A stretch of DNA of 64,000 bases from the NCBI GenBank assembly GCA_965218435.1, contig CBDCKW010000009.1, forward strand, positions 256,001 through 320,000. Direction: 5' to 3'. Origin of the DNA: Truepera sp. (GTDB taxonomy: Bacteria > Deinococcota > Deinococci > Deinococcales > Trueperaceae). Of the stretch, positions 1 through 11,047 are shown piece after piece (position 1 is the first letter of the stretch; every line of letters starts with the position of its first letter). The notes under the pieces are model-generated. The model was given only the letters and a program-made list of their open reading frames with translations. It made no database searches and had not been told where the DNA came from. Both the position numbers and the translations under genes were made by a program.

Positions 1-1182
1 CATTACCGTTTTAGTCGCTGACGCTGAGCCGTTACTTGCTGTAAGGGTATAGGTCGTTGTCGCGGTTGGGCTAACAGACACACTCTTTTTACTTGTTACA
101 TCGCCCACACTATTATCAATGCTGAGCTTAGTCACAGTACCGGAAGTGCTCCATGAAAGCGTGCTGCTCTGACCACTGATGATAGTTGACGGGTCAGCTT
201 TGAATGAGTTGATTTTTGGTGCGGTCGGGCCTGGAGGTGTTACAGGCGGGTTGGGTGGGGTTGGGGGCGTCGGCGGGTTAGGCGGTGTTGGAGGATTTGG
301 TGGAGTCGGCGGATTCGGATTGGTCGGCGGCGGTGTCGTCGAGCCCCCCACGGTGACATAGCCCCGTGGCGGCTGGTTATACGGGTCACCCCCAGCTGTA
401 TCAGCAATCCGGGTCCGCAACACATACGCAAACTCACCACTGACACCCGGTAAAGCCGTGATGTTCGGCGTGCCCGCGGCAACCTTGATCGGATAAACAC
501 ACGTGATCGAAGTCTGAGTCCCGTCTAGCGCACACCCGGTTGTCTCCGCATTTAACGTAAAGCCGTTGACATCGGTGTCTTGTACCAGGTCAGCCATGAA
601 GTTTGCCGGACTACGGTTGGCTAAGTAGATGGTCACGCCGGTAACCGGGGCAGGGCCACTATAGGTAACTTGGGCGTAGAAGGTACCGCCGCTGGCAGGA
701 ACGTTGACGATTCGGGGGTCACCTGCTGTGATGCTGCCGTCGGCGTCACTCGTAAAGGGGCCGGTTTGTGACAAGCTGACGCCGAAAGAGACCGTCCGGC
801 TCCCGTCCGTTGGGGGCGTGACGGGACCGCCGACGGTTACGGTGGTCATCGCGTCGTCGCTGCCGCTGCTGTTGGTGGCCGTCAGGGTGTAGGTTGTCGT
901 GGCGGTCGGGGTCACGGTGGTGCTCACACCACTGATCGAACTGAGGTTGGTGCCGTCGCTGCCCTTTAGGCTGAGGCTGGTGGGGACGCCGGTAATGACC
1001 CAGTTAAGCGTGACCGGGGTACCGGCAGCGACGTTGGTTTGACTGGCGGTAAAGCTGGTGATTTGTGGTGCGCTGCTGTTATTACCGTCGCCTGAAACGC
1101 CCGGACAGGCCGTCAGCAAAAGCGCCAAGCCGCCCAAAAAAAGAGGCCAAAAGCGCCGGAGCGCCGGTTGTAAAGAGTGCAT
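1..1182 (-). CDS. Surface lipoprotein with Ig/PKD-like repeats and Pro-rich linker (3' end runs off the window); paralog of 5337..7142
   Basis: ATG at 1182 with GGAGG-like RBS; MHSLQPALRRFWPLFLGGLALLLTAC lipobox; sequence 353-1087 matches 6313-7047. Confidence 0.85.
   Translation of the reverse strand, partial: MHSLQPALRRFWPLFLGGLALLLTACPGVSGDGNNSSAPQITSFTASQTNVAAGTPVTLNWVITGVPTSLSLKGSDGTNLSSISGVSTTVTPTATTTYTLTATNSSGSDDAMTTVTVGGPVTPPTDGSRTVSFGVSLSQTGPFTSDADGSITAGDPRIVNVPASGGTFYAQVTYSGPAPVTGVTIYLANRSPANFMADLVQDTDVNGFTLNAETTGCALDGTQTSITCVYPIKVAAGTPNITALPGVSGEFAYVLRTRIADTAGGDPYNQPPRGYVTVGGSTTPPPTNPNPPTPPNPPTPPNPPTPPTPPNPPVTPPGPTAPKINSFKADPSTIISGQSSTLSWSTSGTVTKLSIDNSVGDVTSKKSVSVSPTATTTYTLTASNGSASATKTVM
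353..1087. repeat. ~735-bp direct repeat, copy 1 (inside lipoprotein gene 1)
   Basis: Line-by-line comparison shows no differences from 6313-7047 (offset 5960); ORF track gives identical 62-aa shadow ORFs at 704 and 6664. Confidence 0.9.
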
Positions 1183-1385
1183 AGTTATCTCCTCCAAACT
1201 AGCTGTGGTGTCCCCGTACACGCCTCACCCAATTAACGAAACCGTGTACTTCAGGGTCGGGCGTTATTATTTTAGACCTATCTTGGTAGCTGGCGTCAAG
1301 GTTTAGAGCGTTTTACGGCGAAACTTTACGGCGAATGGCAGGGTATAGCGAGGGCGGCTCGAGCCCCACCGACCGCACCCAGATG

Positions 1386-1615
1386 TTACGCCGCGTGCAA
1401 CAGCGTACTCAAAGCTTCAGGCAGGTTAGCCGCGACAAAACAGCTTTCAGGGTAGAGCTAAGCTTCGCCGGATTCGTCCGTAATTCGCAAAAACCCGATG
1501 TTTGGGCCTCATCGTCCGGTAAAACGCGGTAAAGCTTGTGCAGCTCGAGCAGAACCTCAAAGCCTATATAAACGCATACAGCGAAGCGTGGTTCGGTCGC
1601 CGCTAAACGACTCAT
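1386..1615 (-). pseudogene. Degenerate paralog of the 78-aa protein at 2649..2885 (putative antitoxin/immunity)
   Basis: MSRLAATEPRFAVC..ELHKLYRVLPDD aligns with MDELRATDPRFVVC..ELHKIYRVLTDD; after a frameshift it reads GFLRITDESGEA*LYPESCFVAANLPEALSTLLHAA* versus GFLRVLDESGEDYLYPKAYFVAIDLPEALRDMLLHAA. Confidence 0.85.
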
Positions 1616-1646
1616 AGTTGGGGAGAGCCTAACACAAGTGTTTCAG

Positions 1647-1689
1647 AACCCTCGAGCCGCCCCCAAAGCCGCTGTAAAAAAGCTCGAGC
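1647..1689 (+). repeat. Twin-CTCGAG junction element, copy 1
   Basis: AACCCTCGAGC-cgcccccaaagccgctgt-AAAAAAGCTCGAGC; recurs at 3161, 3835, 5208. Confidence 0.85.
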
Positions 1690-1721
1690 TGTGGGAAGCT
1701 ATAGGTCAACACCCGAGGTTT

Positions 1722-1937
1722 TTACGCCAAAAAGTCGTACACCGGCGTCTGCAACATCCTTTTTGGTTCTCTCTGACCCCACGCCATACGCTGAAGCTTT
1801 TCGACCGTCTCCGGCGCAAAAAGCTGCTCACCTGTTTGAAGACTTACTCTGGCAGGTACATTTTCAATGATGACGAGTTTTCCCTGCACCTCGAGGGTGT
1901 AGGTCACGGTGCGCTCTACGAATTCTTCAGGTATCAC
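1722..1937 (-). CDS. YgiT-type (MqsA-like) antitoxin, cysteine-less variant
   Basis: VTYTLEVQGKLVIIENVPARV..TGEQLFAPETVEKLQ..PVYDF signature; AGGAGG then GTG at 1937; overlaps DUF4258 stop. Confidence 0.8.
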   Translation of the reverse strand: MIPEEFVERTVTYTLEVQGKLVIIENVPARVSLQTGEQLFAPETVEKLQRMAWGQREPKRMLQTPVYDFLA

Positions 1938-2256
1938 CTTTTTGCCTCCTCTCTCTAAAGTTAAACCATAATGTCGGGTCAGGTTCGTAAAGTGTAACGA
2001 TTTTAATAAGCGCACGTGACGGGTAGCTACACTGAATGTGAAGAGGTCGCTGAGAGTCAGTAAAACCTAACAGTAGGCAACTTGGGCCGTACTTATCATA
2101 CGGGTAGTCTTCGATGATCTCAGCTTCGAGTAGGGCTTCACGCAGCTCTGCAAACGTAATGCGGCGTAAAATGCTCTGGTCAACGGCGTGACGCGAGAAC
2201 TCGTACTCACCTAAAGCAATTTTTGTGCAGATTTCGTCAGCGAGGGCCACCTGCAA
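1927..2256 (-). CDS. DUF4258 family putative toxin
   Basis: YEFSRHAVDQSILRRI..EIIEDYPYDKYGPSCLLLG..RPLHIQC..IVTLYEPDPTLW motif; typical partner of YgiT-type proteins. Confidence 0.85.
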   Translation of the reverse strand: MQVALADEICTKIALGEYEFSRHAVDQSILRRITFAELREALLEAEIIEDYPYDKYGPSCLLLGFTDSQRPLHIQCSYPSRALIKIVTLYEPDPTLWFNFRERRQKGDT

Positions 2257-2339
2257 GAGTTTAACCGTTTACCTACTGCTGTTTTACGTGTCTTAAGAGC
2301 AACGACAAAATCTTCTCGAGTCCCAAGGAGGGCTTAAAC

Positions 2340-2594
2340 TTAAGAAACAGCTTTATGCGCTTCGGCGTAAAGTTTTAAGGCTGCGTTGACCCGCGTTTCG
2401 TAATCCTCTTGCGCTTGAAACCAAGCCAGCACCCTCGAGTCTATTTCGAGTGTCACGGCTGTTCGGCGTTCGGGTAAACGCAACTCGGCCCGTCTGAAAA
2501 AATTTTCGTCAAGCAGACCCTCGCTGGTGTCAATCTCAGCGTCGGTCAGGGCGTCTACCTTAGCCCAATCGGTCTTTGACGGGTTCTCTTTCAC
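2340..2594 (-). CDS. BrnA-family antitoxin (orphan)
   Basis: SKTDWAKVDALTDAEID..FFRRAEL..VTLEIDSRVLAWFQAQ.DYETRVNAALKLY. Confidence 0.85.
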   Translation of the reverse strand: MKENPSKTDWAKVDALTDAEIDTSEGLLDENFFRRAELRLPERRTAVTLEIDSRVLAWFQAQEDYETRVNAALKLYAEAHKAVS

Positions 2595-2648
2595 AGCCTC
2601 AACAAGTTTGCGCTCATGGCTTACGGCCTTTTGTAAGTGAGGTTGCGT

Positions 2649-2885
2649 CTAAGCCGCGTGCAGCAGCATATCTCTTAATGCTTCAGGTAAGTCTATCGCG
2701 ACAAAGTAAGCTTTGGGATAAAGGTAATCTTCACCGGATTCGTCTAGCACACGCAGAAACCCGACCTTTTCGGCGGCGTCATCGGTTAAAACGCGGTAAA
2801 TTTTGTGCAACTCGAGCGAAACCTCATAGTCTGTATTTTGAATACACACAACAAATCGTGGGTCGGTTGCTCTTAATTCGTCCAT
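2649..2885 (-). CDS. 78-aa acidic small protein, putative antitoxin/immunity protein
   Basis: Intact ORF with RVLDESGEDYLYP motif, 10 bp downstream of 2896..3129; degenerate paralog at 1386..1615. Confidence 0.7.
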   Translation of the reverse strand: MDELRATDPRFVVCIQNTDYEVSLELHKIYRVLTDDAAEKVGFLRVLDESGEDYLYPKAYFVAIDLPEALRDMLLHAA

Positions 2886-2895
2886 ACCTATCAGC

Positions 2896-3129
2896 TTAGT
2901 CCAAAAAGCGTTTAATCTTAAATTCTTTGCGACCGATTCCGTTAGCTTCGTACCAGTGAAGCTCTACCCTTCGTAGTGTGTCACCGGCCAGCGAAACGAC
3001 AGCCACACCTTTGAGTTTACGCCAACGACCGGGGCCGTATATTTTTTGTAGGCGAGCCAATTCACGGATACCGTTTCCAGCTGCGATAGTTTCTATTTCG
3101 GTGATGGTACCGATAATTTCAAAGTGCAT
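2896..3129 (-). CDS. 77-aa basic small protein, putative toxin
   Basis: Intact ORF with WRKLKG..ELHWYEANGIGRKEFKIKRFL motif; two-gene unit inside a TA array. Confidence 0.7.
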   Translation of the reverse strand: MHFEIIGTITEIETIAAGNGIRELARLQKIYGPGRWRKLKGVAVVSLAGDTLRRVELHWYEANGIGRKEFKIKRFLD

Positions 3130-3160
3130 CGCTTGGGAAAGCCTAGCACAAGCATTTTAG

Positions 3161-3199
3161 AACCCTCGAGCCCATTAGAGTAGCCAGAAAAGCTCGAGC
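3161..3199 (+). repeat. Twin-CTCGAG junction element, copy 2
   Basis: AACCCTCGAGC-ccattagagtagccag-AAAAGCTCGAGC, followed by TATACT-6nt-ATG. Confidence 0.85.
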
Positions 3200-3217
3200 G
3201 TCCGCTATACTGACGTC

Positions 3218-3469
3218 ATGATGACCCAAGACGCTGAGCTGCTCGAGCGCATCACCCTCATTCCAGAGTTGATGGGCGGTAAACCAACCGTCCGGGGGTT
3301 GCGAATTACTGTAGAGCAGCTTCTTTCGGCTCTTGCCCACGGGGTCAGCGAAGCCGACCTGCTAGACGATTACCCGGAGCTGAGCCGCGACGACATTGCC
3401 GCCGCTCTCCTCTACGCAGGTACGCTCGTGGCTGAAGAACGCGTCATTCCTATTACCGACGCGGCCTAA
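3218..3469 (+). CDS. DUF433 antitoxin
   Basis: RITLIPELMGGKPTVRGLRITVEQLL..LLDDYPELSRDDIAAALLYA. Confidence 0.9.
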   Translation: MMTQDAELLERITLIPELMGGKPTVRGLRITVEQLLSALAHGVSEADLLDDYPELSRDDIAAALLYAGTLVAEERVIPITDAA

Positions 3470-3478
3470 AGCATTTTT

Positions 3479-3826
3479 ATGAAATTCTTGTTCGACGTCG
3501 GTGTCGGACGAAAAGCCGAGCAGTTTTTAGCAGCGCAAGGCCACGACGTTCAAGCTGTCCGTGACCTCGACCCAAGGTTGCCTGACAGCGATATTCTTGA
3601 TATTGCCGTCTCTGAAATGCGACTCGTCGTGACGATGGATAAGGATTTTGGTGAACTGGTCTACCGCTCGAGGCGCGCCCACGCCGGGGTGTTGTTATTA
3701 CGCCTAGAGGCTGCGACAGGTGACGAAAAGGTAGCCATAATCAAGACCCTTATCGAAAACTACGCGGGCGACATAGCCGGTCGGTTTGCGGTTTATCAAA
3801 ACGGCAAGTTAAGGATTAGACGGTGA
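3479..3826 (+). CDS. DUF5615 PIN-like toxin
   Basis: MKFLFDVGV..GHDV..DSDILDIAVSEMRLVVTMDKDFGELVY..HAGVLLLRL; paired with DUF433. Confidence 0.9.
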   Translation: MKFLFDVGVGRKAEQFLAAQGHDVQAVRDLDPRLPDSDILDIAVSEMRLVVTMDKDFGELVYRSRRAHAGVLLLRLEAATGDEKVAIIKTLIENYAGDIAGRFAVYQNGKLRIRR

Positions 3827-3834
3827 ATGAAGCA

Positions 3835-3875
3835 AACCCTCGAGCCCACCCAAGTCCCCCTAAAAAAGCTCGAGC
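3835..3875 (+). repeat. Twin-CTCGAG junction element, copy 3
   Basis: AACCCTCGAGC-ccacccaagtccccct-AAAAAAGCTCGAGC filling the gap between convergent toxin genes. Confidence 0.85.
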
Positions 3876-4270
3876 TACAGCTGTTCCAGCTTCTCAGCCA
3901 ATATGCCTACAACGTCAGCTTTACTTAAACGCCCTTCCGCGACCCCTAAAACCAAGTCAAACTTTTCATCTTGAGAGAGCCCGAGGCGAAGGCCGTTTAA
4001 CCGTAAAAAAGTAGCTGTTACCGCGTAAGCCGTACGTTTGTTGCCGTCTATAAAGGGATGATTCCGAACCAAGCCGATGAGATAGCTCGCGGCCATTTCA
4101 GCAAAACCCGTATTCAAACGTTGTCCGCCAAAACTCGCCTGGGGTGAAGCTAGCGCAGACCCCAACAGCCCCATGTCCCGAAGGCCGAACGACCCGCCGA
4201 AACGTTCGATGAGCGTGTCATGGATTTGTAACACGGTCGGCAAGGTTAGAAAGACGGGTTCTTCAGGCGT
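3875..4270 (-). CDS. doc: Fic/Doc family toxin (start uncertain: ACG at 4270 or TTG at 4243)
   Basis: HPFIDGNKRTA Fic motif; IHDTLIERFGGSFGLRDMGLLGSALASP. Confidence 0.85.
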   Translation of the reverse strand, partial: TPEEPVFLTLPTVLQIHDTLIERFGGSFGLRDMGLLGSALASPQASFGGQRLNTGFAEMAASYLIGLVRNHPFIDGNKRTAYAVTATFLRLNGLRLGLSQDEKFDLVLGVAEGRLSKADVVGILAEKLEQL

Positions 4271-4493
4271 TGGAAAGTCGCCCCAACACCGTTTCGTCTT
4301 CTGCCAAGACCGCCCCGAACGCCATTGCCGCCCGCACTTCACCCTTTTCCAAACCGGGCGCGTGAAGCGTCAGCACCTTGCCCAGCAGCTGCACCTCGAC
4401 CTCTCCACCTGAAGGGACGCCCAACAGCTCGAGCGTCTCCTTACCTAAAATGATGGCTTGAGAGTTCCCTACTTTGGTCAGCTTTTTGCGCAT
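4263..4493 (-). CDS. AbrB/MazE-like antitoxin of Doc
   Basis: MRKKLTKVGNSQAIILGKETLELLG swapped-hairpin N-terminus; GTTATAAC palindrome upstream. Confidence 0.85.
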   Translation of the reverse strand: MRKKLTKVGNSQAIILGKETLELLGVPSGGEVEVQLLGKVLTLHAPGLEKGEVRAAMAFGAVLAEDETVLGRLSNA

Positions 4494-4568
4494 TACGGCC
4501 TCCTGTTAAGACGATGTTATAACGGCTGATGGGTAAAAGAAAGCTCGAGCATCCCCTATAATGACGCC

Positions 4569-4796
4569 ATGACTCAGCTCATCCTCAAATTAGATGAAGA
4601 AACAGTCTCAAAAGTACAAGAAGCTGCCGAACGCGAAGGGTTGACACGTGACGAATGGCTTGTGAAGCTTGTTGAAGAGCGACTGAGTAAAAGCTGGCCC
4701 GCTTCAGTCAGGCAACTTAGTGGCGCTTGGCCCGACTTTCCCGACGCGGAAACGTTGCGGGAGCATCACCAAGACGTACCCCGCGAAACGTTTTAG
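4569..4796 (+). CDS. RHH/CopG-like antitoxin (VapB-like)
   Basis: MTQLILKLDEET..AAEREGLT..W..SWPASVRQLSGAWPDFPDAETLR; TATAAT-6nt-ATG; overlaps PIN gene start. Confidence 0.8.
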   Translation: MTQLILKLDEETVSKVQEAAEREGLTRDEWLVKLVEERLSKSWPASVRQLSGAWPDFPDAETLREHHQDVPRETF

Positions 4797-5195
4797 TGTT
4801 CGCGCTTGATACAAACACGGTTATCTACTATTTCAAAGGTTTAGGCGGCGTTTCCGACCGTTTACTTGCCACCCTACCGCGAGAGGTCGCTATACCCGGC
4901 ATCGTTGTCTATGAGCTGGAGCGTGGCGTCCTGAAAGCAGGATCGTCCAAAAAACGAGAACAACTTGCTCTATTTTTGCTTTTACCATTTTGCCTTTTGG
5001 ACGCACCGAAGGAGCAGCAGCGGCACAATTAGTGGCGAGCTCGAGGCGTGTGGTCTACCTATCGGCCCCTTAGACGTCCTTATTGCAGGCACAGCTCTAG
5101 CGCATGGCGCAACCCTGGTAACCCGCAATCTTAGAGAGTTCAGCCGGGTTGAAGGTTTGAAAGTTATAAGTTGGTACGACGAGAGTAACCCTTGA
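4796..5195 (+). pseudogene. vapC: VapC PIN toxin, double frameshift
   Basis: VFALDTNTVIY.. in one frame, TILPFGRTEGAAAAQ in a second, GELEACGLPIGPLDVLIAGTALAHGATLVTRNLREFSRVEGL in a third. Confidence 0.85.
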
Positions 5196-5207
5196 TAGCT
5201 GGTGCAA

Positions 5208-5272
5208 AACCCTCGAGTCTCCCCAAAGCCGCCGTAAAAAAGCTCGAGCCCCCGCTTTAGGAGGGCTCGAGC
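5208..5272 (+). repeat. Twin-CTCGAG junction element, copy 4, with a third GCTCGAGC
   Basis: AACCCTCGAGT-ctccccaaagccgccgt-AAAAAAGCTCGAGC, nearly identical to 1647-1689; extra GCTCGAGC at 5265. Confidence 0.85.
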
Positions 5273-5336
5273 TGAATAAGAGAAGTAGTTAGAGTTCGAC
5301 TGACTCACAACCTACTTGTGTACGGAATAACGTTGT

Positions 5337-7142
5337 CTACTCGCCGTCATATGTGACCGAGTTATCCTTAGTAGTTGATGCAGTATTCGGGTTCCCTGCC
5401 TTGTCAGTTGCCCTGGCTTCACCTATAAAGACTTTGATTGTCTCACCTTTTTTCATTCCAGCTATGGAAATAGTGTAAGTGGTGGGACCCCCTTGTAAAG
5501 AAGCATTAGCTGTTGTACTTCCTTCAATCGTCACATCGTCTCTTGCAAAGCCTAGTATTTCCTCACTAAAAGTAGCGGTAAATCTTATGGGGCTAGTGGT
5601 TGCAGGATCAACTTGTCCGTTGGCCTGTTTGATGGTTACACTCGGCGCAGTCGCGTCTACAGATCTGACTTCGACATTTACATCGTCAAAAACTGATTTG
5701 CCATTAGTGGCAGTTAACCTTAATGTATAGTTTCCGGCTTCCTCAAATGTAGCATTCGTGTCTTCTGAAATGGAGTCAGAGAAAACTACGTTTCCGGGGT
5801 TAGCACCAGTGGCTGTCCATCGATATGTTGTAGTACCAGTGGTAGGCTCATTTTCTGTACTAGCTTGTAGAGAGACCATTGCTAACCCCTGAGCGTTGAG
5901 CGTTACAGGTTCAACGGCTTCAATACTTACAGTAAATGCTGGTGTTTCGGTAACACCGCCAACCTTAACAGTTGCGGTTTTCGTCGTTGACGCTGAGCCG
6001 TTCTTCGCTGTGAGCGTGTAGGTCGTCGTCTTAGTTGGGCTGACAGACTTGCTCGTCGTACCTGTCACAGTTCCTACACCGTTACTGATACTGAGTGAGG
6101 TCACGGTGCCGGAAGTGCTCCATGAAAGCTTGCTGCTCTGACCACTGGTGATAGTTGACGGGTCAGCTTTGAATGAGTTGATTTTTGGTGCAGTCGGGCC
6201 TGGAGGTGTTACAGGAGGATTCGTGGGCGGCGGATTTGTAGGCGGCGGATTTGTAGGCGGCGGATTTGTAGGTGGTGGGTTGGTTGGCGGTGGTGTCGTC
6301 GAGCCCCCCACAGTGACATAGCCCCGTGGCGGCTGGTTATACGGGTCACCCCCAGCTGTATCAGCAATCCGGGTCCGCAACACATACGCAAACTCACCAC
6401 TGACACCCGGTAAAGCCGTGATGTTCGGCGTGCCCGCGGCAACCTTGATCGGATAAACACACGTGATCGAAGTCTGAGTCCCGTCTAGCGCACACCCGGT
6501 TGTCTCCGCATTTAACGTAAAGCCGTTGACATCGGTGTCTTGTACCAGGTCAGCCATGAAGTTTGCCGGACTACGGTTGGCTAAGTAGATGGTCACGCCG
6601 GTAACCGGGGCAGGGCCACTATAGGTAACTTGGGCGTAGAAGGTACCGCCGCTGGCAGGAACGTTGACGATTCGGGGGTCACCTGCTGTGATGCTGCCGT
6701 CGGCGTCACTCGTAAAGGGGCCGGTTTGTGACAAGCTGACGCCGAAAGAGACCGTCCGGCTCCCGTCCGTTGGGGGCGTGACGGGACCGCCGACGGTTAC
6801 GGTGGTCATCGCGTCGTCGCTGCCGCTGCTGTTGGTGGCCGTCAGGGTGTAGGTTGTCGTGGCGGTCGGGGTCACGGTGGTGCTCACACCACTGATCGAA
6901 CTGAGGTTGGTGCCGTCGCTGCCCTTTAGGCTGAGGCTGGTGGGGACGCCGGTAATGACCCAGTTAAGCGTGACCGGGGTACCGGCAGCGACGTTGGTTT
7001 GACTGGCGGTAAAGCTGGTGATTTGTGGTGCGCTGCTGTTATTACCGCCGCCCGAAACGCCGGGGCAGGCGGTCAAAAGAACCGTCAGCGCGGCGAATAG
7101 TAGCAGGGGCGCGAACCTGGCTAGCTTGTGTTTTGTGTGCAT
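5337..7142 (-). CDS. Surface lipoprotein, 601 aa, Ig/PKD-like domains with PPPTN repeats
   Basis: LLTAC lipobox, AGGAG RBS, TTTYTLTATN repeats, (PPPTN)x4 linker. Confidence 0.85.
   Translation of the reverse strand: MHTKHKLARFAPLLLFAALTVLLTACPGVSGGGNNSSAPQITSFTASQTNVAAGTPVTLNWVITGVPTSLSLKGSDGTNLSSISGVSTTVTPTATTTYTLTATNSSGSDDAMTTVTVGGPVTPPTDGSRTVSFGVSLSQTGPFTSDADGSITAGDPRIVNVPASGGTFYAQVTYSGPAPVTGVTIYLANRSPANFMADLVQDTDVNGFTLNAETTGCALDGTQTSITCVYPIKVAAGTPNITALPGVSGEFAYVLRTRIADTAGGDPYNQPPRGYVTVGGSTTPPPTNPPPTNPPPTNPPPTNPPPTNPPVTPPGPTAPKINSFKADPSTITSGQSSKLSWSTSGTVTSLSISNGVGTVTGTTSKSVSPTKTTTYTLTAKNGSASTTKTATVKVGGVTETPAFTVSIEAVEPVTLNAQGLAMVSLQASTENEPTTGTTTYRWTATGANPGNVVFSDSISEDTNATFEEAGNYTLRLTATNGKSVFDDVNVEVRSVDATAPSVTIKQANGQVDPATTSPIRFTATFSEEILGFARDDVTIEGSTTANASLQGGPTTYTISIAGMKKGETIKVFIGEARATDKAGNPNTASTTKDNSVTYDGE
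6313..7047. repeat. ~735-bp direct repeat, copy 2
   Basis: Matches 353-1087. Confidence 0.9.
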
Positions 7143-7355
7143 CTCTCCTCCAGAGTGTTGGGGTCAACCTTTACGGTTGCCGGTCAAACCTTTGCGGTGC
7201 TGCTCTATCATATAACACAAAAATACTTAACTAAAGCTTAATGCTGGGGATGAAGAGCTGACTGGGGCGTATTGCTGCGGCGTAGCACCGGCGTGACGCG
7301 GCAAATGGATGATAACTGACAACGTGATGGCAGGGCCGTCGTAAAGTAAAGCTTC

Positions 7356-8249
7356 ATGAACGTCGCCCTGTTCGCCCTGTTGGTCTTGGTCGTGCTCCTG
7401 ATTCAGGGGGTGTTAGAACCGTACCGGTTGGTAACTGACGCGGTTGACGGGCCGGTACCGGGTTTGCCGGAAAGTTGGCAGGGGGCGCGGGTGGTGCTGC
7501 TGGCAGACTTTCAGGTCGGGCTCTTTATGGACAACCGCGCGACGGTGCGGCGGGCGGTCAGGCGTACGGTGGCGCTGCGGCCCGAGCTGGTTTTACTCGC
7601 CGGAGACTTTATCCACGACACGGCGCGGGGCATCAAACCGGTGACGGAGATTTTAGCGCCGCTGGTTAAGGCCGGGATTCCGACCTTTGCGGTGTTGGGC
7701 AACCACGACTACGCGATGCCGACCGCTAGAGACCCCGAAAACCGGGCGCTGGCAGAAAAGTTAGAGCGTGCGCTAGAAGCTATGGGGATTCGGGTACTGC
7801 ATAATCAGAGTGTCGCTTTAGAAAAACAGGGGGAGACGCTCTATTTGGTAGGTATCGGCTCGCACGTGCCAGATGATGACGACCCTGAGCAGGCGTTTAC
7901 GGCGGTGCCTGCGGGTGCGCCGCGCCTGGTGCTGATGCACCATCCCGACACCTACGCGGAGATTTTGCCGCACCGAGCGCCGCTGGCGTTTGCCGGACAC
8001 ACCCACGGCGGGCAGGTGCGGCTGCCGTTTGCGTCCGGGCGTTCGCTCCTGACCTGGCTCCGTGACGGGCAAAACTACAACGCGGACTGGGCCAAGCGGT
8101 ACGGCAAGGCCGGGAACCGGCTCTACATCACGCGGGGGATTGGCTGCAGCGTCGCGCCGATAAGGTTAAATTGTCCACCCGAACTGACGCTGATCACCCT
8201 GAAACGCCCTGAAGACGCCGAAGGGGTGCCGGTCTCGAGCGCAGATTAA
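7356..8249 (+). CDS. Calcineurin-like metallophosphoesterase (YkuE-like)
   Basis: AGDF, LGNHD, MHHPD, AGHTHGGQV motifs; N-terminal TM. Confidence 0.9.
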   Translation: MNVALFALLVLVVLLIQGVLEPYRLVTDAVDGPVPGLPESWQGARVVLLADFQVGLFMDNRATVRRAVRRTVALRPELVLLAGDFIHDTARGIKPVTEILAPLVKAGIPTFAVLGNHDYAMPTARDPENRALAEKLERALEAMGIRVLHNQSVALEKQGETLYLVGIGSHVPDDDDPEQAFTAVPAGAPRLVLMHHPDTYAEILPHRAPLAFAGHTHGGQVRLPFASGRSLLTWLRDGQNYNADWAKRYGKAGNRLYITRGIGCSVAPIRLNCPPELTLITLKRPEDAEGVPVSSAD

Positions 8250-8325
8250 AAACCGAGCCGAGCGGTTTTAGCTGGCGGCTGAGCTGTTCATCGGCTCGGG
8301 CCGTACGTCGGATACTTTTACTATA

Positions 8326-8400
8326 GCAGGTATCATCTGGTCGGCAACGCTCTCAATCTGAGTTCAGCTGACCAGCACGCACATTCTGCGATGATACTGG
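8326..8400. repeat. ~75-bp intergenic inverted-repeat element, copy A
   Basis: GCAGGTATCATC ... CCAGCACGCACATT ... GATGATACTGG; homologous to 16242, 14691 and the IS flanks. Confidence 0.7.
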
Positions 8401-8708
8401 TGGCAACCTCTCATGGAAATGCTACTACGCTGTTTAAGTTCTCCCTTTAACTGCCCCAGGGTACATTTGGGGAGTCGCGGACAGATTACGAACGCGCGTT
8501 GCGTAAACGGTTTTTGGGTTGCCGAAGCGTCGTTTCCGGGTGCCGGTAACGCACCTGTTTAAGCTCACGCTCTGTTTTACCAGGTGCAGTCCAGACTCGC
8601 GGCGTTATTTTTTAGACGTATCCGGCGATCACCTCGGCGTCGCGTTTGTCCGTTTTGTTGCGTCTGAGTTGACCCGTAGCGAAGCCCTTCACTTTGGCTA
8701 TAAAGCCT

Positions 8709-9383
8709 CTACCGTGGTTTGACAACGACACGGCGGTTTTTGCCTTCACCCGACGACTCGCTGTCAACGGCGGGGTCATCGGCCAGGGTCATGTGAATCA
8801 CGCGGCGCTCAGCGGCACTCATAGGCTCGAGTTCCACGGCAAACCCTGTTTTACGCGCCCGCGCCGCAGCTTTAAGCGCGACGCCGCGTAACCTTTCATC
8901 ACGCCGCACTTTGTAACCGCCGACATCAACCGAGACGCGGACATGCGGCTCAGACTCGTCGCGGTTGACGACCGCGTTGGTCAGGTACTCGAGGGCTACG
9001 AGCGTCCGGCCCCCGCGCCCGATAAGCTTGCCCGAATCACCGCCGTAAATATCGGCTTGCAAACCGCCCTCAACCTCGCGCACTTCAGCGGCGTAACCGG
9101 GGTCTAAGTTCAGCAGCAAACCGACCAAAAACGATTCGCAGCGCCCCAACTGTCCCTCGCCGGTTGCCGGTGGTACCTGCAGTACCGCGCTGACCTCACG
9201 TGACGTGGCGTCGGTAACAGCGGCAACCTCAGCTTTAGAAACTGCAGGGGGCGGTGAAGACGCGTCGTCCTCACCGGTTGCAATCCCGAGGTCGCTCAGA
9301 TATTTATCGAGTTCACTGTTCTCGAGGTCGCTGTTCTCGAGGTCACTGTTCTCGAGGTCATTATGGGTCTCGTCTTCAGCCAC
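8709..9383 (-). CDS. jag: Jag/EloR RNA-binding protein (KH + R3H)
   Basis: GKLIGRGGRTL KH loop; LEPMSAAERRVIH R3H motif; follows yidC. Confidence 0.9.
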   Translation of the reverse strand: MAEDETHNDLENSDLENSDLENSELDKYLSDLGIATGEDDASSPPPAVSKAEVAAVTDATSREVSAVLQVPPATGEGQLGRCESFLVGLLLNLDPGYAAEVREVEGGLQADIYGGDSGKLIGRGGRTLVALEYLTNAVVNRDESEPHVRVSVDVGGYKVRRDERLRGVALKAAARARKTGFAVELEPMSAAERRVIHMTLADDPAVDSESSGEGKNRRVVVKPR

Positions 9384-9391
9384 GGTTCCCC

Positions 9392-11047
9392 TTACTTCGC
9401 TTTAGCTTTTTTCGCTTTGGGTTTGCTCCGGGTTTTCTGGTTTTTCGGCCCGGCTTTCACCGCAGCTGGCGTCGGTACCGGGGTAAGCCCAGTTGCAGCG
9501 ACCGGTGTCGGTGCGGACAGCGAACGCTGAATCAAAAACTGCTGAGTCACCTGAACGAGCATCGAAGTAATCAGGTAAAGCGTCACCCCTGCCGGAAAGC
9601 TGAAGGCGAAAAACACGAAGACACCGCTGATCAGGAGCTGCTGCTGCAAGGTTTGCCGGTTACCTTTTGACGATACGAACGCCTGCGCGACCATGATCGC
9701 AACGTAAAGAATCGGCAGCAGATAGATCGGGTCGTTAAGGCCCAGGTCGGGAATCCACAAAAACCCTTGGTTAAACTCGAAGTTGATAAAGACGCGCCAC
9801 AAGATGATAAAGATGGGCATCTGCACAACTGCCGGTAAACAGCCCCCGGCCGGGTTGACGCCCGCCTCTTTATAGAGCGCCATCGTCTCTTGGGTGAGTT
9901 TTTCGCGGTCGTCTTTATACTTAGCTTGCAGCTCTTTAATTCTAGGCTGGATGTTTTGCATCCCGACCATAGACTTCATCTGCGTGTGAATCAGCGGCCA
10001 GACGAGCAACCGGAAGGTCAAAGTCAGCAAGATAATCGACAAACCCCACGACCCGATAACGCCGTGAATCGCCCGCAACACGACGATAATCCCGAGTGAC
10101 AAGCGGCCTAAGATATTGGGGTTAAAAAGGCCGGGTAAGTCGAGATAGTCCTCTTGTAAAAAGTGAACCATCTCGTTGGGACCGGCGTAAACTTGCAGCT
10201 CTAAAGACGTTTCAGCGCCTCTAGCTGCGCCTAGAGTTTTACCCATGGCAATCTGCGCAGCTGCTAACGGCTCAGCGACCAGCGCCTTGCCCCCGGCTCC
10301 CTTGACGTTGGGGTTGGGGCGAATCACCAGCGCCGTACCGGTGTTGCGGTTGTTGGCCTGAAGCGAGATATAACTCGGATTCGCCACCTCTTTTTGCGGC
10401 GGGTTTAGGGTAAAGGTGTCGCCCTGGCCGAGCTTGATGACCGGCGCAACTTGTTTGGCGATGCCGGGATAGGCAAACTGCACGAGTGTTTCGCCCTGTG
10501 CGGGCGCGGCGCGGCGCAGTTTGAGCGAGACCCCGATAGAGTTGCGAACGGCGCTGATTAAGATGGTCTTTTCAACCTGGACGCCCCCGACCCGGTAGTT
10601 AAAGGTACCCTCGAGCGCCGGTGCGTCGTCAAAGCGTTTTTCTACCCAGTTGCCTTTGACATCTTTTGGAGCCTGGTACTTGCCGTTTAAGAGGAGTGCC
10701 CCACCGGGAATATCGGAGGTGGCGGGGATGAGGTTTTGCCGACCGTCAAAGGCGTAGTTGCCGCCGAAATCTTGCCCCCGCTGCGCCCGGTAGTAGTACG
10801 CGAGCACCTCACCACTCGGGCTAAAAAGGTAATCCACGCCCTTTGAGGTCACGAGTTTAAGCGCCTTATTCTGCTTGTCACACCAAAACGAGGTCGCCTT
10901 AGGGGTACACAGCTCTTTTAAGGCTGCGGCGTTGTTAAAGTCAGCGGGCTTAAAGTCCCGGATGCCGAAACTTACACGGGCAAAGCCTGCGGTAGAAAAA
11001 ACTGCGCAGAGACCGACGACTAGAGCGAACAAAAACTTACGGTTCAA
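9392..11047 (-). CDS. yidC: Membrane protein insertase YidC
   Basis: [33 protein letters not shown] then TTG at 11047. Confidence 0.92.

Follow-up and report, generated by a model that had tools for sequence, protein, structure and literature searches.

A small array of toxin-antitoxin (TA)-type genes in Truepera sp. behaved like an integron without an integrase, and it was likely run by ordinary cell recombination at the palindrome CTCGAG. The window analyzed was a stretch of 64,000 nucleotides (assembly GCA_965218435.1, contig CBDCKW010000009.1, positions 256,001 to 320,000 of the forward strand). In this window, six TA-type module types and one decayed duplicate were strung together by a short CTCGAG-bearing repeat, here called the element, and the order of modules in this genome (G000) was, from left to right, decayed P, Y, B, P, D, C, and R (Table 1). 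The explanation that we considered best, to which we gave about an even chance, was that the array was an expanding and contracting stack of TA modules that was joined by host-derived repeats of ~40 bp and rearranged by general recombination.

Table 1. Features of the array and its flanks in window positions, and module content of the other alleles
Feature	Position	Strand	Remarks
Lipoprotein gene B	1-1182	-	Left flank; Ig-like/PKD surface protein; runs off the window; paralogue of gene A
Single CTCGAG	1358-1363	none	Left array boundary
Decayed second copy of 78-aa gene	1386-1615	-	72.5% nt identity to 2649-2885, in two frames; 77-aa partner deleted
Element E1	1647-1689	+	CTCGAG, 26-nt spacer, CTCGAG
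Module Y	1722-2256	-	DUF4258 (1927-2256) and YgiT-type finger (1722-1937); intact
Single CTCGAG	2315-2320	none	Between modules Y and B, without spacer
Module B	2340-2641	-	BrnA (PF14384, E 2e-7) and ~25-nt BrnT remnant
Module P	2649-3129	-	77-aa gene (2896-3129) and 78-aa gene (2649-2885); uncharacterized
Element E2	3161-3199	+	22-nt spacer; most diverged copy
TATACT box	3206-3211		After E2, six bases before DUF433 start
Module D	3218-3826	+	DUF433 (3218-3469; PF04255) and DUF5615 PIN-like (3479-3826; PF18480); intact
Element E3	3835-3875	+	24-nt spacer; right CTCGAG touches Doc stop codon
Module C	3875-4493	-	AbrB-like (4263-4493) and Doc (3875-4267); intact
Collapsed element	4536-4550	+	One CTCGAG at 4544, spacer missing
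TATAAT box	4557-4562		After collapsed element
Module R	4569-5195	+	RHH/VapB-like (4569-4796) and frameshifted VapC (4796-5195)
Element E4	5208-5249	+	25-nt spacer; terminal copy
Hairpin	5241-5273	-	CTCGAG arms and T-tract, 13-pair stem; predicted intrinsic terminator of gene A
Lipoprotein gene A	5337-7142	-	Right flank; 601 aa, Big_12/PKD
Allele G004			Y, D
Allele G005			B, P, R-stub
Allele G002			R
Allele L064			Decayed Y, C, Y, R, B
Allele L168			Y, (B fragment), P, C

An earlier note on this DNA had described seven different TA cassettes. TA-type gene families were present, but the cassettes were of six types, the seventh was a decayed duplicate, and only four pairs were intact. Specifically, VapC was frameshifted by deletions of 4 bp and 1 bp near 4977 and 5026 (relative to G002 and runs X4 and X6), BrnT was reduced to its remnant, and BrnA carried an 11-nt insertion behind its native start at 2617, with an open frame at 2340-2594. 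Allele L064 kept a BrnT-like gene, which was named from its sequence without an NCBIfam hit and was the alignment basis for module B. The first gene, noted earlier as a decayed 78-aa type, proved to be a frameshifted paralogue of the 78-aa gene, and its 77-aa partner was lost through a deletion via other microhomology, not CTCGAG. The partner-less 78-aa unit was intact in L168. The gene names given earlier agreed with Pfam matches to DUF4258 (PF14076, E 4e-20), BrnA, DUF433, DUF5615, Fic/Doc, and PIN and with NCBIfam-type calls for the YgiT finger (TIGR03831, above cut-off), Doc, doc_partner, VapB-like, and VapC-like genes. Doc was above cut-off (PF02661 and TIGR01550), and the AbrB (PF04014 and TIGR02609), RHH, and VapC matches were all under curated cut-offs. 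As had also been noted, no integrase or intact transposase was seen in window positions 1-10000 or the preceding 20 kb, based on ORF lists inspected by eye and the positions of PF00589 matches.

The 77- and 78-aa genes, which were indeed uncharacterized in that neither had a Pfam or NCBIfam match, likely encode a toxin and an antitoxin. Homologues numbered 4,444 and 1,395, a precomputed Pfam assignment was present in one of the listed rows only, and the two genes were adjacent in five of the six other-genus loci that held the 78-aa gene. The modeled complex scored 0.85 versus 0.00 for the best control (the mark for this score was reached by 116 of 157 solved pairs and 2 of 215 mismatched pairs), the runs agreed in at least 87% of contacts, and the partner pLDDT was at least 82; the two products were thereby predicted to bind. 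In fold searches, the best Z was 4.9, and there was no Foldseek match at E 0.001.

The double-CTCGAG element stood in four gaps in the same orientation, as first described. A strict pattern had four matches in the 4,805,864-base genome, compared to an expectation of 0.043 with independent halves, and all four were in the array, so the element was not scattered through intergenic DNA. In a profile search, the four copies, all of them training set members, scored 34 to 49 bits; nothing elsewhere in the genome exceeded 16.2 bits, and the reversed-genome control reached 18.6. No copies were found in viral contigs or plasmids. Across alleles, all 15 elements were in direct orientation, 28 of their 30 palindromes were exact (29 with at most one change), and the ~40-bp repeats had a spacer similarity of ~65 to 70%. 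The spacers were 22 to 26 nt long, but 43 nt in G002. Half or single copies had been placed at about 1357, 2315, and 4541; CTCGAG was found at 1358, 2315, and 4544, but a lone hexamer means little with 9,883 occurrences in this genome. At 2315, G004 and L064 had a full element after module Y. After the AbrB end before 4544, L168 had CTCGAG-spacer-CTCGAG, L064 had a spacer whose right palindrome was damaged, and run X4 contigs had a spacer; the junction here was a CTCGAG-to-CTCGAG collapse. Between BrnA and the 77/78-aa pair there was no element, the two being fused by the loss of BrnT, as was the case in G005.

We compared the array to five other alleles of the same site, from three congener genomes and two further contigs. 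Each allele drew on the same six modules, the only types to recur across the six alleles, but the subset and the order differed, and the borders fell mostly at the element. Module Y was also present in G004, L064, and L168, module D in G004, and module C in L064 and L168. Orientation was fixed, with 0 of 21 module occurrences inverted, and there were three order reversals (L064 and contigs of runs X1 and X4) and duplicate modules in two alleles. G004, G005, L168, and most contig joints were subsets of this genome's order, and cassette-free versions of the site existed. In a run X1 contig, the CTCGAG at 1358 was joined directly to the left CTCGAG at 3839 (1319+26 letters to 3839, with 179 letters on the shorter side). 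Intragenic CTCGAG was used at the joint of modules R and B in L064 and at one end of the X4 joint of 4084 to 4428. Cassette gain, loss, and reordering took place at sites that were all in direct orientation; rearrangement at the element itself, as read from allele comparison, should be weighed against the bias of alignment ends toward CTCGAG, since CTCGAG is so conserved. The repertoire was closed and about as diverged as host genes, with module identities of 74 to 90% at the nucleotide level versus 74 to 97% for flanking host genes.

The 14 nt upstream of the element tracked the left module (15 elements; permutation P = 0.003). The spacer tracked the genome (P = 0.008) and the right module (P = 0.016) but showed no link to the left module (P = 0.88). 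These values came from nine uncorrected tests on kin that were not independent, and the pattern mapped exchange to the left CTCGAG of the element. Spacers were more alike within genomes than between genomes, and genome-specific variants were common to all copies in G004 (3 of 3) and L064 (4 of 4). Given the order reversals, duplicates, genome-specific spacers, and intact palindromes, exchange at the element probably recurred after species divergence.

Judging from the flanks, the element probably originated as host DNA next to a lipoprotein gene's predicted terminator. The hairpin T-tract was the A-run of the E4 spacer, and the right-end hairpin was found in G001, G002, G004, L064, and L168. 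G001 held one diverged element copy and the hairpin with no cassette, the sole match in 251 genomes of the order. By eye, gene B ended in the same hairpin, CTCGAG-joined to the flank that precedes the first element in L168. Terminator-like sites were no commoner than in shuffles. Genes A and B were 92% identical, and gene B was 72% identical to its L064 orthologue. Because the flanking paralogues were 92% and 90% alike within two genomes versus 72% between genomes, homologous exchange was taken to be active here. ComEC was present in six of six genus genomes. The data did not support the earlier idea of a platform that is open to new cassettes and has a recombination site of its own: only six types recurred, divergence was host-like, the element lay at a predicted host terminator and stood once without cassettes in G001, and no recombinase traveled with it.

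CTCGAG was a HIP1-like palindrome, over-represented and conserved. The commonest 8-mer was GCTCGAGC, CTCGAG took up 8,390 of the 19,313 TCGA on C9, and it was conserved at 0.60 versus 0.28 overall (rank 1 of 1,653 hexamers); its observed/expected ratio given 5-mers was only 1.24. As outlined for HIP1 of cyanobacteria (Elhai 2015, PMC4390886; Kamoku and Nielsen, 10.1101/2024.09.10.611283; PMC9239245), there was an over-abundant conserved palindrome and a conserved methyltransferase candidate, and effects of HIP1 on recombination and transformation have been reported there (PMC4390886, 10.1101/2024.09.10.611283). Unlike HIP1 as described in these sources, the sequence and phylum were different, and the effect was local, not genome-wide. 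In the literature, we found no report of a cassette array whose junctions consist of a HIP. The candidate cognate methyltransferase was Eco57I-type (C9:3672240-3673934) and 60 to 75% identical in G001, G002, and G004. Elsewhere in the genome, CTCGAG was not a breakpoint hotspot: it stood at 7 of 70 gene-scale indel ends versus 4.9 expected (with resolution limited at 78% identity) and at 21 of 474 repeat ends versus 16.7 expected.

The element appeared to be neither attC nor dif-like, as originally proposed. The core boxes RYYYAAC and GTTRRRY bracket each attC site, and no such pair occurred at any of the seven junctions on either strand. In place of a long bottom-strand hairpin with extrahelical bases, E1 to E3 mostly folded into 7- to 8-bp stems from the two palindromes (z of -0.1 to -3.0). 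The best IntI score in the genome was 59.7 bits (TIGR02249, cut-off 265), and the only match in an Rfam scan of 1100-5500 was a chance one (E 0.61). A pdif or dif site has a fixed length and an 11-6-11 layout, in which a short core separates two recombinase arms; here, arm matches around each palindrome numbered 0 to 5 of 11, and the mixed orientations and inverted modules of pdif were absent from the 15 elements and 21 modules. The candidate dif, a motif conserved beside a terminus-linked recombinase (C9:1451551-1452546) in G000, G002, and G004, had nine mismatches in 25 at its best match within window positions 1-8000, and the array was ~1.2 Mb from the skew maximum. No tRNA was at the site in eight of eight loci.

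Chromosomal TA clusters, viewed as stabilizing or decaying addiction modules (Van Melderen and Saavedra De Bast 2009, PMC2654758), likewise hold TA pairs for which resistance to large deletions in repeat-rich arrays has been proposed, and show toxin-first decay, but the modules here were delimited by a common repeat and permuted between species. Integron arrays and CALINs, as outlined by Cury et al. (2016, PMC4889954), share one direct site per cassette, excision, loss, and reordering, TA modules with their own promoters in both directions, within-genome site likeness, and no integrase nearby; CALINs can occur without IntI (PMC4889954). Unlike integrons as characterized there, the array had no RYYYAAC/GTTRRRY boxes, long bulged hairpin, or IntI, its site was host-looking, and its six module types were all TA-type. 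In the pdif/dif modules of Acinetobacter, as portrayed in PMC13141974, TA pairs are also shuffled at short flanking sites by a remote enzyme. However, pdif sites occur as both C/D and D/C, so that modules can invert (PMC13141974), and the sites here all pointed one way, varied in length, lacked dyad arms, and differed from the terminus-linked-recombinase motif.

In the preferred model of general recombination, stand-alone TA modules would have been captured early in the genus, in either orientation, at the terminator's CTCGAG cluster. Unequal exchange between copies, either within one cell or involving imported congener DNA, would then duplicate, delete, and permute units and homogenize spacers, and the HIP1-like palindrome would focus the crossover. 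TA pairs would be prevalent since they are hard to lose as long as the toxin is intact, and they may also shield the stretch between the two lipoprotein genes from deletion. Several observations sat poorly with this model. CTCGAG was not a general hotspot, and ~40-bp repeats with such diverged spacers are short and diverged for RecA-type exchange. The Doc stop at the site edge, the gene starts ~20 nt behind it, and the fixed exchange point looked site-specific. The first gain of a spacer by each new module was not accounted for, and the L064 order would need about three rounds of duplication and deletion. The earlier note had offered service in trans or CTCGAG-mediated recombination, and CTCGAG/host recombination fit better, the former being a weaker, doubtful fit. 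A dedicated remote recombinase, likely a tyrosine recombinase, would act on an asymmetric site (A-rich arm, CTCGAG, and spacer), release circles, and re-insert them in a fixed orientation, and we held this to be possible but rather unlikely. The fixed orientation with permuted order, exchange at the left CTCGAG, compact modules with their own -10 boxes, confinement of the element to one locus, the lack of a CTCGAG hotspot elsewhere, and the 23 PF00589 matches in the genome as candidates were all in its favor, as was the within-genome site homogeneity also described for chromosomal integrons (PMC4889954). On the other hand, no such enzyme was near any allele, and the element was absent from all 30 recombinase loci of five relatives. 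Large serine recombinases were likewise missing from this genome (PF07508 occurred in one of five genomes, G004 only), and the lack of IntI and dyad arms, the variable spacer, the closed repertoire, and the absence from viral contigs and plasmids also spoke against it. An X4 contig joined the end of module R (5211) back to 4540, as a circle would give, but this joint showed no circle because it had only ~19 far-side letters, which were shared with the DUF433 leader.

An ancient TA island that has since only decayed or occasionally been duplicated, with a passive element and breakpoints that seem to fall on CTCGAG merely as alignment artifacts (it is the most conserved word and sits in the sole non-coding gaps), seemed improbable. 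The closed repertoire, host-like divergence, many broken toxins, predominance of subsets of this order, and anchoring of alignments by CTCGAG would suit it, but the order reversals, duplicate modules, genome-specific spacers, and intact palindromes would not. We regarded as more improbable still that a transposase or integrase (IS1380-like, IS200/IS605, or IS110) inserted TA modules in trans at the hairpin with a target duplication of ~30 to 45 bp. The duplicated stretch was probably host DNA adjoining the hairpin, and the single module of G002 was flanked by a direct repeat of ~40 bp whose register was shifted (A-tract, CTCGAG, and hairpin). The genome also held a MITE with terminal repeats beginning CCTCGAG and 22 Y1-transposase matches. 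However, neither terminal inverted repeats nor IS ends were present on the modules, the MITE ends continued differently and the MITE inserted in AT-rich targets elsewhere, the IS110 in the G005 array was inside BrnA and not at the element, and G002 (91% complete) had no Y1 match.

Integron-like shuffling is generally attributed to dedicated recombinases that have sites of their own, and here an array with such behavior seemed to have grown from a host terminator and an over-abundant palindrome. We tentatively considered a cassette system of a new type, in which the highly iterated palindrome would itself be the core of the crossover. A candidate enzyme, either a distant tyrosine recombinase or an activity that nicks or recombines DNA at HIP sequences, would cut CTCGAG, probably methylated, in its A-rich terminator-derived context and would excise, re-insert, and capture TA modules with no need for attC, dif, or a neighboring integrase. 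If this doubtful reading were true, the locus would offer a natural assay of HIP function, long an open question, and the 77/78-aa pair would be a widespread TA family of unmatched fold. The scope was one locus, one genus, and six modules, with the enzyme as a candidate only. Within that scope, the array offered a compact, well-delimited substrate for testing if recombination is directed by HIP-type palindromes, a matter that has stood open in cyanobacteria for three decades, and it illustrated one route by which cassette arrays might arise.

Our own annotation of window positions 1340 to 5280 in the Truepera sp. genome (G000) recovered the toxin-antitoxin (TA)-type modules and the shared junction element that an earlier note had described. 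The note had counted seven different cassettes; there were indeed seven units, but the leftmost was a second 78-aa gene in decayed form, so only six types were present. Modules Y (DUF4258/YgiT), P (a 77/78-aa pair), D (DUF433/DUF5615), and C (AbrB/Doc) were intact, VapC in R (RHH/VapC) was frameshifted, and BrnT in B (BrnA/BrnT) was almost lost. Two paralogous Ig-like lipoprotein genes flanked the array, whose distance was ~820 kb to dnaA and 1.2 Mb to the GC-skew maximum. Each element consisted of an A-rich arm, CTCGAG, a 22- to 26-nt spacer with an A-run at its end, and a second CTCGAG. In the 4.8-Mb genome this pattern had four matches, with 0.043 expected from its halves, and all four were in the TA array, which is the enrichment that the note had proposed to look for. 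Beyond these copies, the best score of an element profile over G000 was 16.2 bits (a reversed control reached 18.6), and 12 other TA loci of G000 did not carry the element.

Features of the array site, its alleles, and related loci (plain numbers are window positions)
Feature	Location	Strand	Content or basis
Element E1	1647-1689	+	pattern match
Element E2	3161-3199	+	pattern match
Element E3	3835-3875	+	pattern match
Element E4	5208-5249	+	pattern match
Single CTCGAG junctions	1358, 2315, 4544		sequence
Module order, left to right			decayed 78-aa gene copy, Y, B, P, D, C, R; domain and profile searches
77/78-aa pair	2649-3129		module P
Lipoprotein genes B, A	1-1182, 5337-7142		left and right flanks
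Hairpin at E4	5241-5273	-	predicted intrinsic terminator of gene A
Hairpin of gene B	C9:255355		judged by eye
DUF433, RHH leaders	3193-3220, 4544-4571		common leader
Short frame	8612-8779		between phosphoesterase and jag genes
G004 allele			Y, D; three elements
G005 allele			B, P, one element, R stub; set among insertion sequences
G002 allele			R; bracketed by ~40-bp direct repeats
L064 allele			decayed Y, C, Y, R, B
L168 allele			Y, B fragment, 78-aa gene alone, C
Tyrosine recombinase	G000:C9:1451551-1452546		at GC-skew maximum
~22-bp motif	C9:1452590-1452612		upstream of recombinase
Genes absent from a congener	C9:1108772-1109296, 3490588-3491409		CTCGAG near both ends
Eco57I-type methyltransferase	G000:C9:3672240-3673934		candidate CTCGAG methylase
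Eco57I/TaqI-type methyltransferase (L230, L241)	G001:C1:1094210-1096226		beside broken XhoI-family nuclease
MITE copies	G000:C9:467670-467910, 1257802-1258044, 1403599-1403839, 2623615-2623849; C7:9967-10205		~240 bp
Longer MITE relatives	C5:503198, C5:232541

A REP-like family was rejected because contig C9, which holds the array, carried just 15 CTCGAG-armed hairpins with no family among them. A peak of CTCGAG pairs at a spacing of 21 was set aside because the pairs were mostly coding and 21 is a multiple of three. The DUF433 and RHH genes shared a leader (CTCGAG, 7 nt, TATA(C/A)T, 6 nt, ATG), possibly because microhomology at the start codon allowed leaders to be exchanged; in the congener G002, the RHH leader was different and longer than in G000. 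The short frame between the phosphoesterase and jag genes resembled an IS110 transposase fragment.

Outside G000, the pattern had one match away from the site in 61 relatives (G056, intergenic between non-TA genes). A metagenome scan gave 115 matches. Contig L064 was the one from this locus, and tblastn with the module proteins gave no hit at any of the remaining 114, for 35 of which the search covered only ~600 bases. Strong matches to the element profile R1 in 128 family genomes were confined to its three training genomes, with all others at or below 22.8 bits. The diverged sites of G001 and G002 escaped the profile, which was therefore insensitive to distant versions. The element was found in no viral contig and no plasmid. 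Neither this locus nor a HIP-jointed TA array was found described in the literature covered, with most subscription journals outside that coverage.

A DNA search of the 128 family genomes, the metagenome pattern scan, and a flanking-gene search supplied five further alleles; the unpublished genome G128 was counted in denominators alone, and no claim was built on it. The comparison between relatives that had been suggested thus covered six alleles, with different module subsets and orders. There was no module at the site in G001, and in G003 the flanking gene was missing from the assembly (86% complete). None of the 21 module occurrences was inverted, and order was reversed three times (in L064, C preceded Y and R preceded B; in L168, the lone 78-aa gene followed Y). 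L168 was syntenic with G000 and 80 to 97% identical in the compared genes; the record, titled Actinoplanes, is probably mis-binned or mis-titled. In pairwise alignments to G000, the Y unit started no more than 6 bp from the left CTCGAG of E1 in G004, L064, and L168, the C unit in L064 and L168 extended from the left CTCGAG of E3 to the CTCGAG at 4544, and D in G004 was flanked by E2 and E3. Module borders thus fell mostly at the element, as the note had anticipated, and the remaining module ends were internal deletions or diverged leaders.

The point of exchange was located with a linkage test on 15 elements from five alleles (the longer G002 element was excluded), for which the p values are uncorrected and the sequences related. 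The 14 nt preceding the left CTCGAG tracked the left module (p 0.003), and an equally long stretch behind the right CTCGAG tracked the right module (p 0.001). Spacers were linked to the right module (p 0.016) and to the genome (p 0.008), and no linkage to the left module was seen (p 0.88). This pattern indicated that the unit is CTCGAG-spacer-CTCGAG-genes, swapped at or near the left palindrome. Spacer variants were genome-specific in every copy (3/3 in G004 and 4/4 in L064), so spacers were homogenized or re-copied after these species separated. Because L168 has a full element behind the AbrB end matching that at 4544 in G000, the 4544 junction is an element minus its spacer, which was lost between the two palindromes.

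The surroundings of E4 pointed to the source of the element. E4 enters the predicted terminator hairpin of gene A, whose T-tract is the A-run of the E4 spacer, and the same hairpin closed the array in five other alleles. At the same place, G001 carried CTCGAG-21 nt-CTCGAG-hairpin with no cassette, the only such match among 251 genomes of the order; its spacer was just loosely similar to the element and was missed by the profile. Gene B of G000 ended in the same hairpin, where CTCGAG forms the joint with the flank found before the first element in L168 (both judged by eye). Taken together, the terminator overlap, the G001 copy, and the gene B hairpin suggest that the element is, most simply, multiplied host DNA. 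The G001 site was either ancestrally empty or emptied later. In other genera of the family, the modules stood alone without the element.

The view of the array as an open capture platform was not borne out, since the repertoire was closed (six types in six alleles) and nucleotide identities of the modules to G000 (74 to 90%) matched those of flanking genes (74 to 97%). Decayed duplicates occurred in two alleles. The flanking lipoprotein paralogues were 92% and 90% alike within genomes and 72% alike between genomes; these tandem genes, in G000 and in L064, evolve in concert, and their C-terminal domain strings differed in each relative.

The 77-aa and 78-aa proteins had 4,444 and 1,395 homologues, respectively, and thus form a very large family without a name; the pair matched no family and no fold, and fold and Atlas searches gave only unnamed clusters. 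The model of the pair was confident (pLDDT 93), with invariant E56, H58, Y60, and E61. The predicted complex scored 0.85 versus 0.00 for the best control, with 87% contact agreement and a partner pLDDT of at least 82; among solved pairs, 116 of 157 attained the score mark, as did 2 of 215 mismatched ones. Toxin genes decayed first (VapC in G000 and L064; BrnT in G000 and G005; DUF4258 in L168; the 77-aa gene in the G000 left copy, G005, and L168), and no allele showed decay of the antitoxin first. The predicted complex and the decay pattern make it likely that the 77/78-aa genes are a TA pair.

CTCGAG itself occurred 9,883 times in G000, whose commonest 8-mer was GCTCGAGC, and made up 8,390 of the 19,313 TCGA sites on C9. 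Alignments to two congeners (852 kb out of 1.2 Mb fetched; mean identity, 78%) placed it first among 1,653 hexamers in conservation, at 0.60 versus 0.28. This abundance and conservation are the profile of the cyanobacterial HIP1, for which both site-specific and illegitimate recombination have been reported, as have gains in transformation that depend on methylation (PMC4390886, 10.1101/2024.09.10.611283, PMC9239245, PMC5861425). Of 70 gene-scale indel ends, 7 lay at CTCGAG (4.9 expected), and of 474 repeat ends, 21 did (16.7 expected). Two G000 genes absent from a congener, presumably NUDIX-like and SDR-like, had CTCGAG near both ends (2 of 35 indels, not above chance). CTCGAG is not a general hotspot, and its effect is restricted to the setting of the repeats.

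The candidate CTCGAG methylase was 60 to 75% identical in G001, G002, and G004 and had no PDB sequence match. Searches of four further genomes did not detect the G001 methyltransferase beside the broken nuclease; the G001 genome was also CTCGAG-rich. The XhoI-family nuclease was rejected as the agent because just one broken copy, in G001, was present among 5 genomes, and XhoI cutting and ligation would yield inversions too. Other sequence biases included GCCGTAAAA (365 copies versus 98 for its reversal, genome-wide), CGTAAA (among the ten most conserved hexamers and also within the element spacer), and GGCGCC, GGGCCC, and TTTAAA, which were nearly missing from G000 (O/E 0.01 to 0.05). A MITE with AT-rich flanks and 13-bp terminal inverted repeats starting CCTCGAG is, we assume, IS1380-like.

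Contigs of four public runs from three studies (4 of 6 listed runs) carried joints within the array, including 1319(+26) to 3839, 3173 to 3909, 3847 to 4536, 4524 to 5212, and 5252 to 2340; G000 itself may have come from one of these runs (X1). At least one end lay within 25 bp of a junction in 11 of 16 joints and both ends in 6 of 16, such zones being 14% of the array; one lipoprotein-promoter joint was excluded, the joints were not independent, and some sides were short. Repeats attract false joints, and a binomial test was therefore not used. As evidence of the excised circles that the earlier note had proposed to look for, the joint from 5211 to 4540 was not accepted because of its short side and shared leader. 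A few contig ends hung loose at E4 and may represent additional modules. The runs listed for the array included no RNA dataset.

As the note had stated, no integrase adjoined the array: none of the 23 tyrosine recombinase matches in G000 was next to it, and there was no tRNA at the site. The best IntI score in G000 was 59.7 bits, below the cut-off of 265, large serine recombinases were absent from G000, resolvase searches gave two broken matches, and the element was found at 0 of 30 recombinase loci of five relatives. The array junctions folded weakly and had neither dyad arms nor attC boxes, in agreement with the proposed distinction from attC. The tyrosine recombinase at the GC-skew maximum was 84 to 89% identical in G002 and G004, and the unique motif upstream was conserved, although inverted in G000 relative to both; they are a candidate single-enzyme Xer/dif system. 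This dif candidate was unlike the element. A first dif guess upstream of the same recombinase was dropped because it was not conserved, and a terminus/dif origin of the array was rejected because the array is far from the terminus. In its behavior the array resembles CALINs (PMC4889954) and pdif arrays (PMC13141974), but it fails the site tests that define each.

A dedicated recombinase acting in trans would better account for the sharpness of the borders and for an effect seen only at this locus, but it is without a candidate and fits the closed module set poorly, and we regard it as unlikely. Passive decay, graded weaker than either a trans-acting enzyme or host recombination, is improbable, and a target duplication made by a transposase, also graded below those two, is slightly more so. 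We favor host recombination at repeats, aided by DNA uptake, at a probability of about one-half; the comparative facts were observed, and the enzymology is inferred. Recombination on short direct repeats, with CTCGAG as the preferred crossover, would duplicate, delete, and permute units, and DNA uptake may aid exchange (ComEC was present in all six genus genomes). Addiction would then retain TA pairs until the toxin decays, along the lines of the stabilization model for such pairs (PMC2654758).
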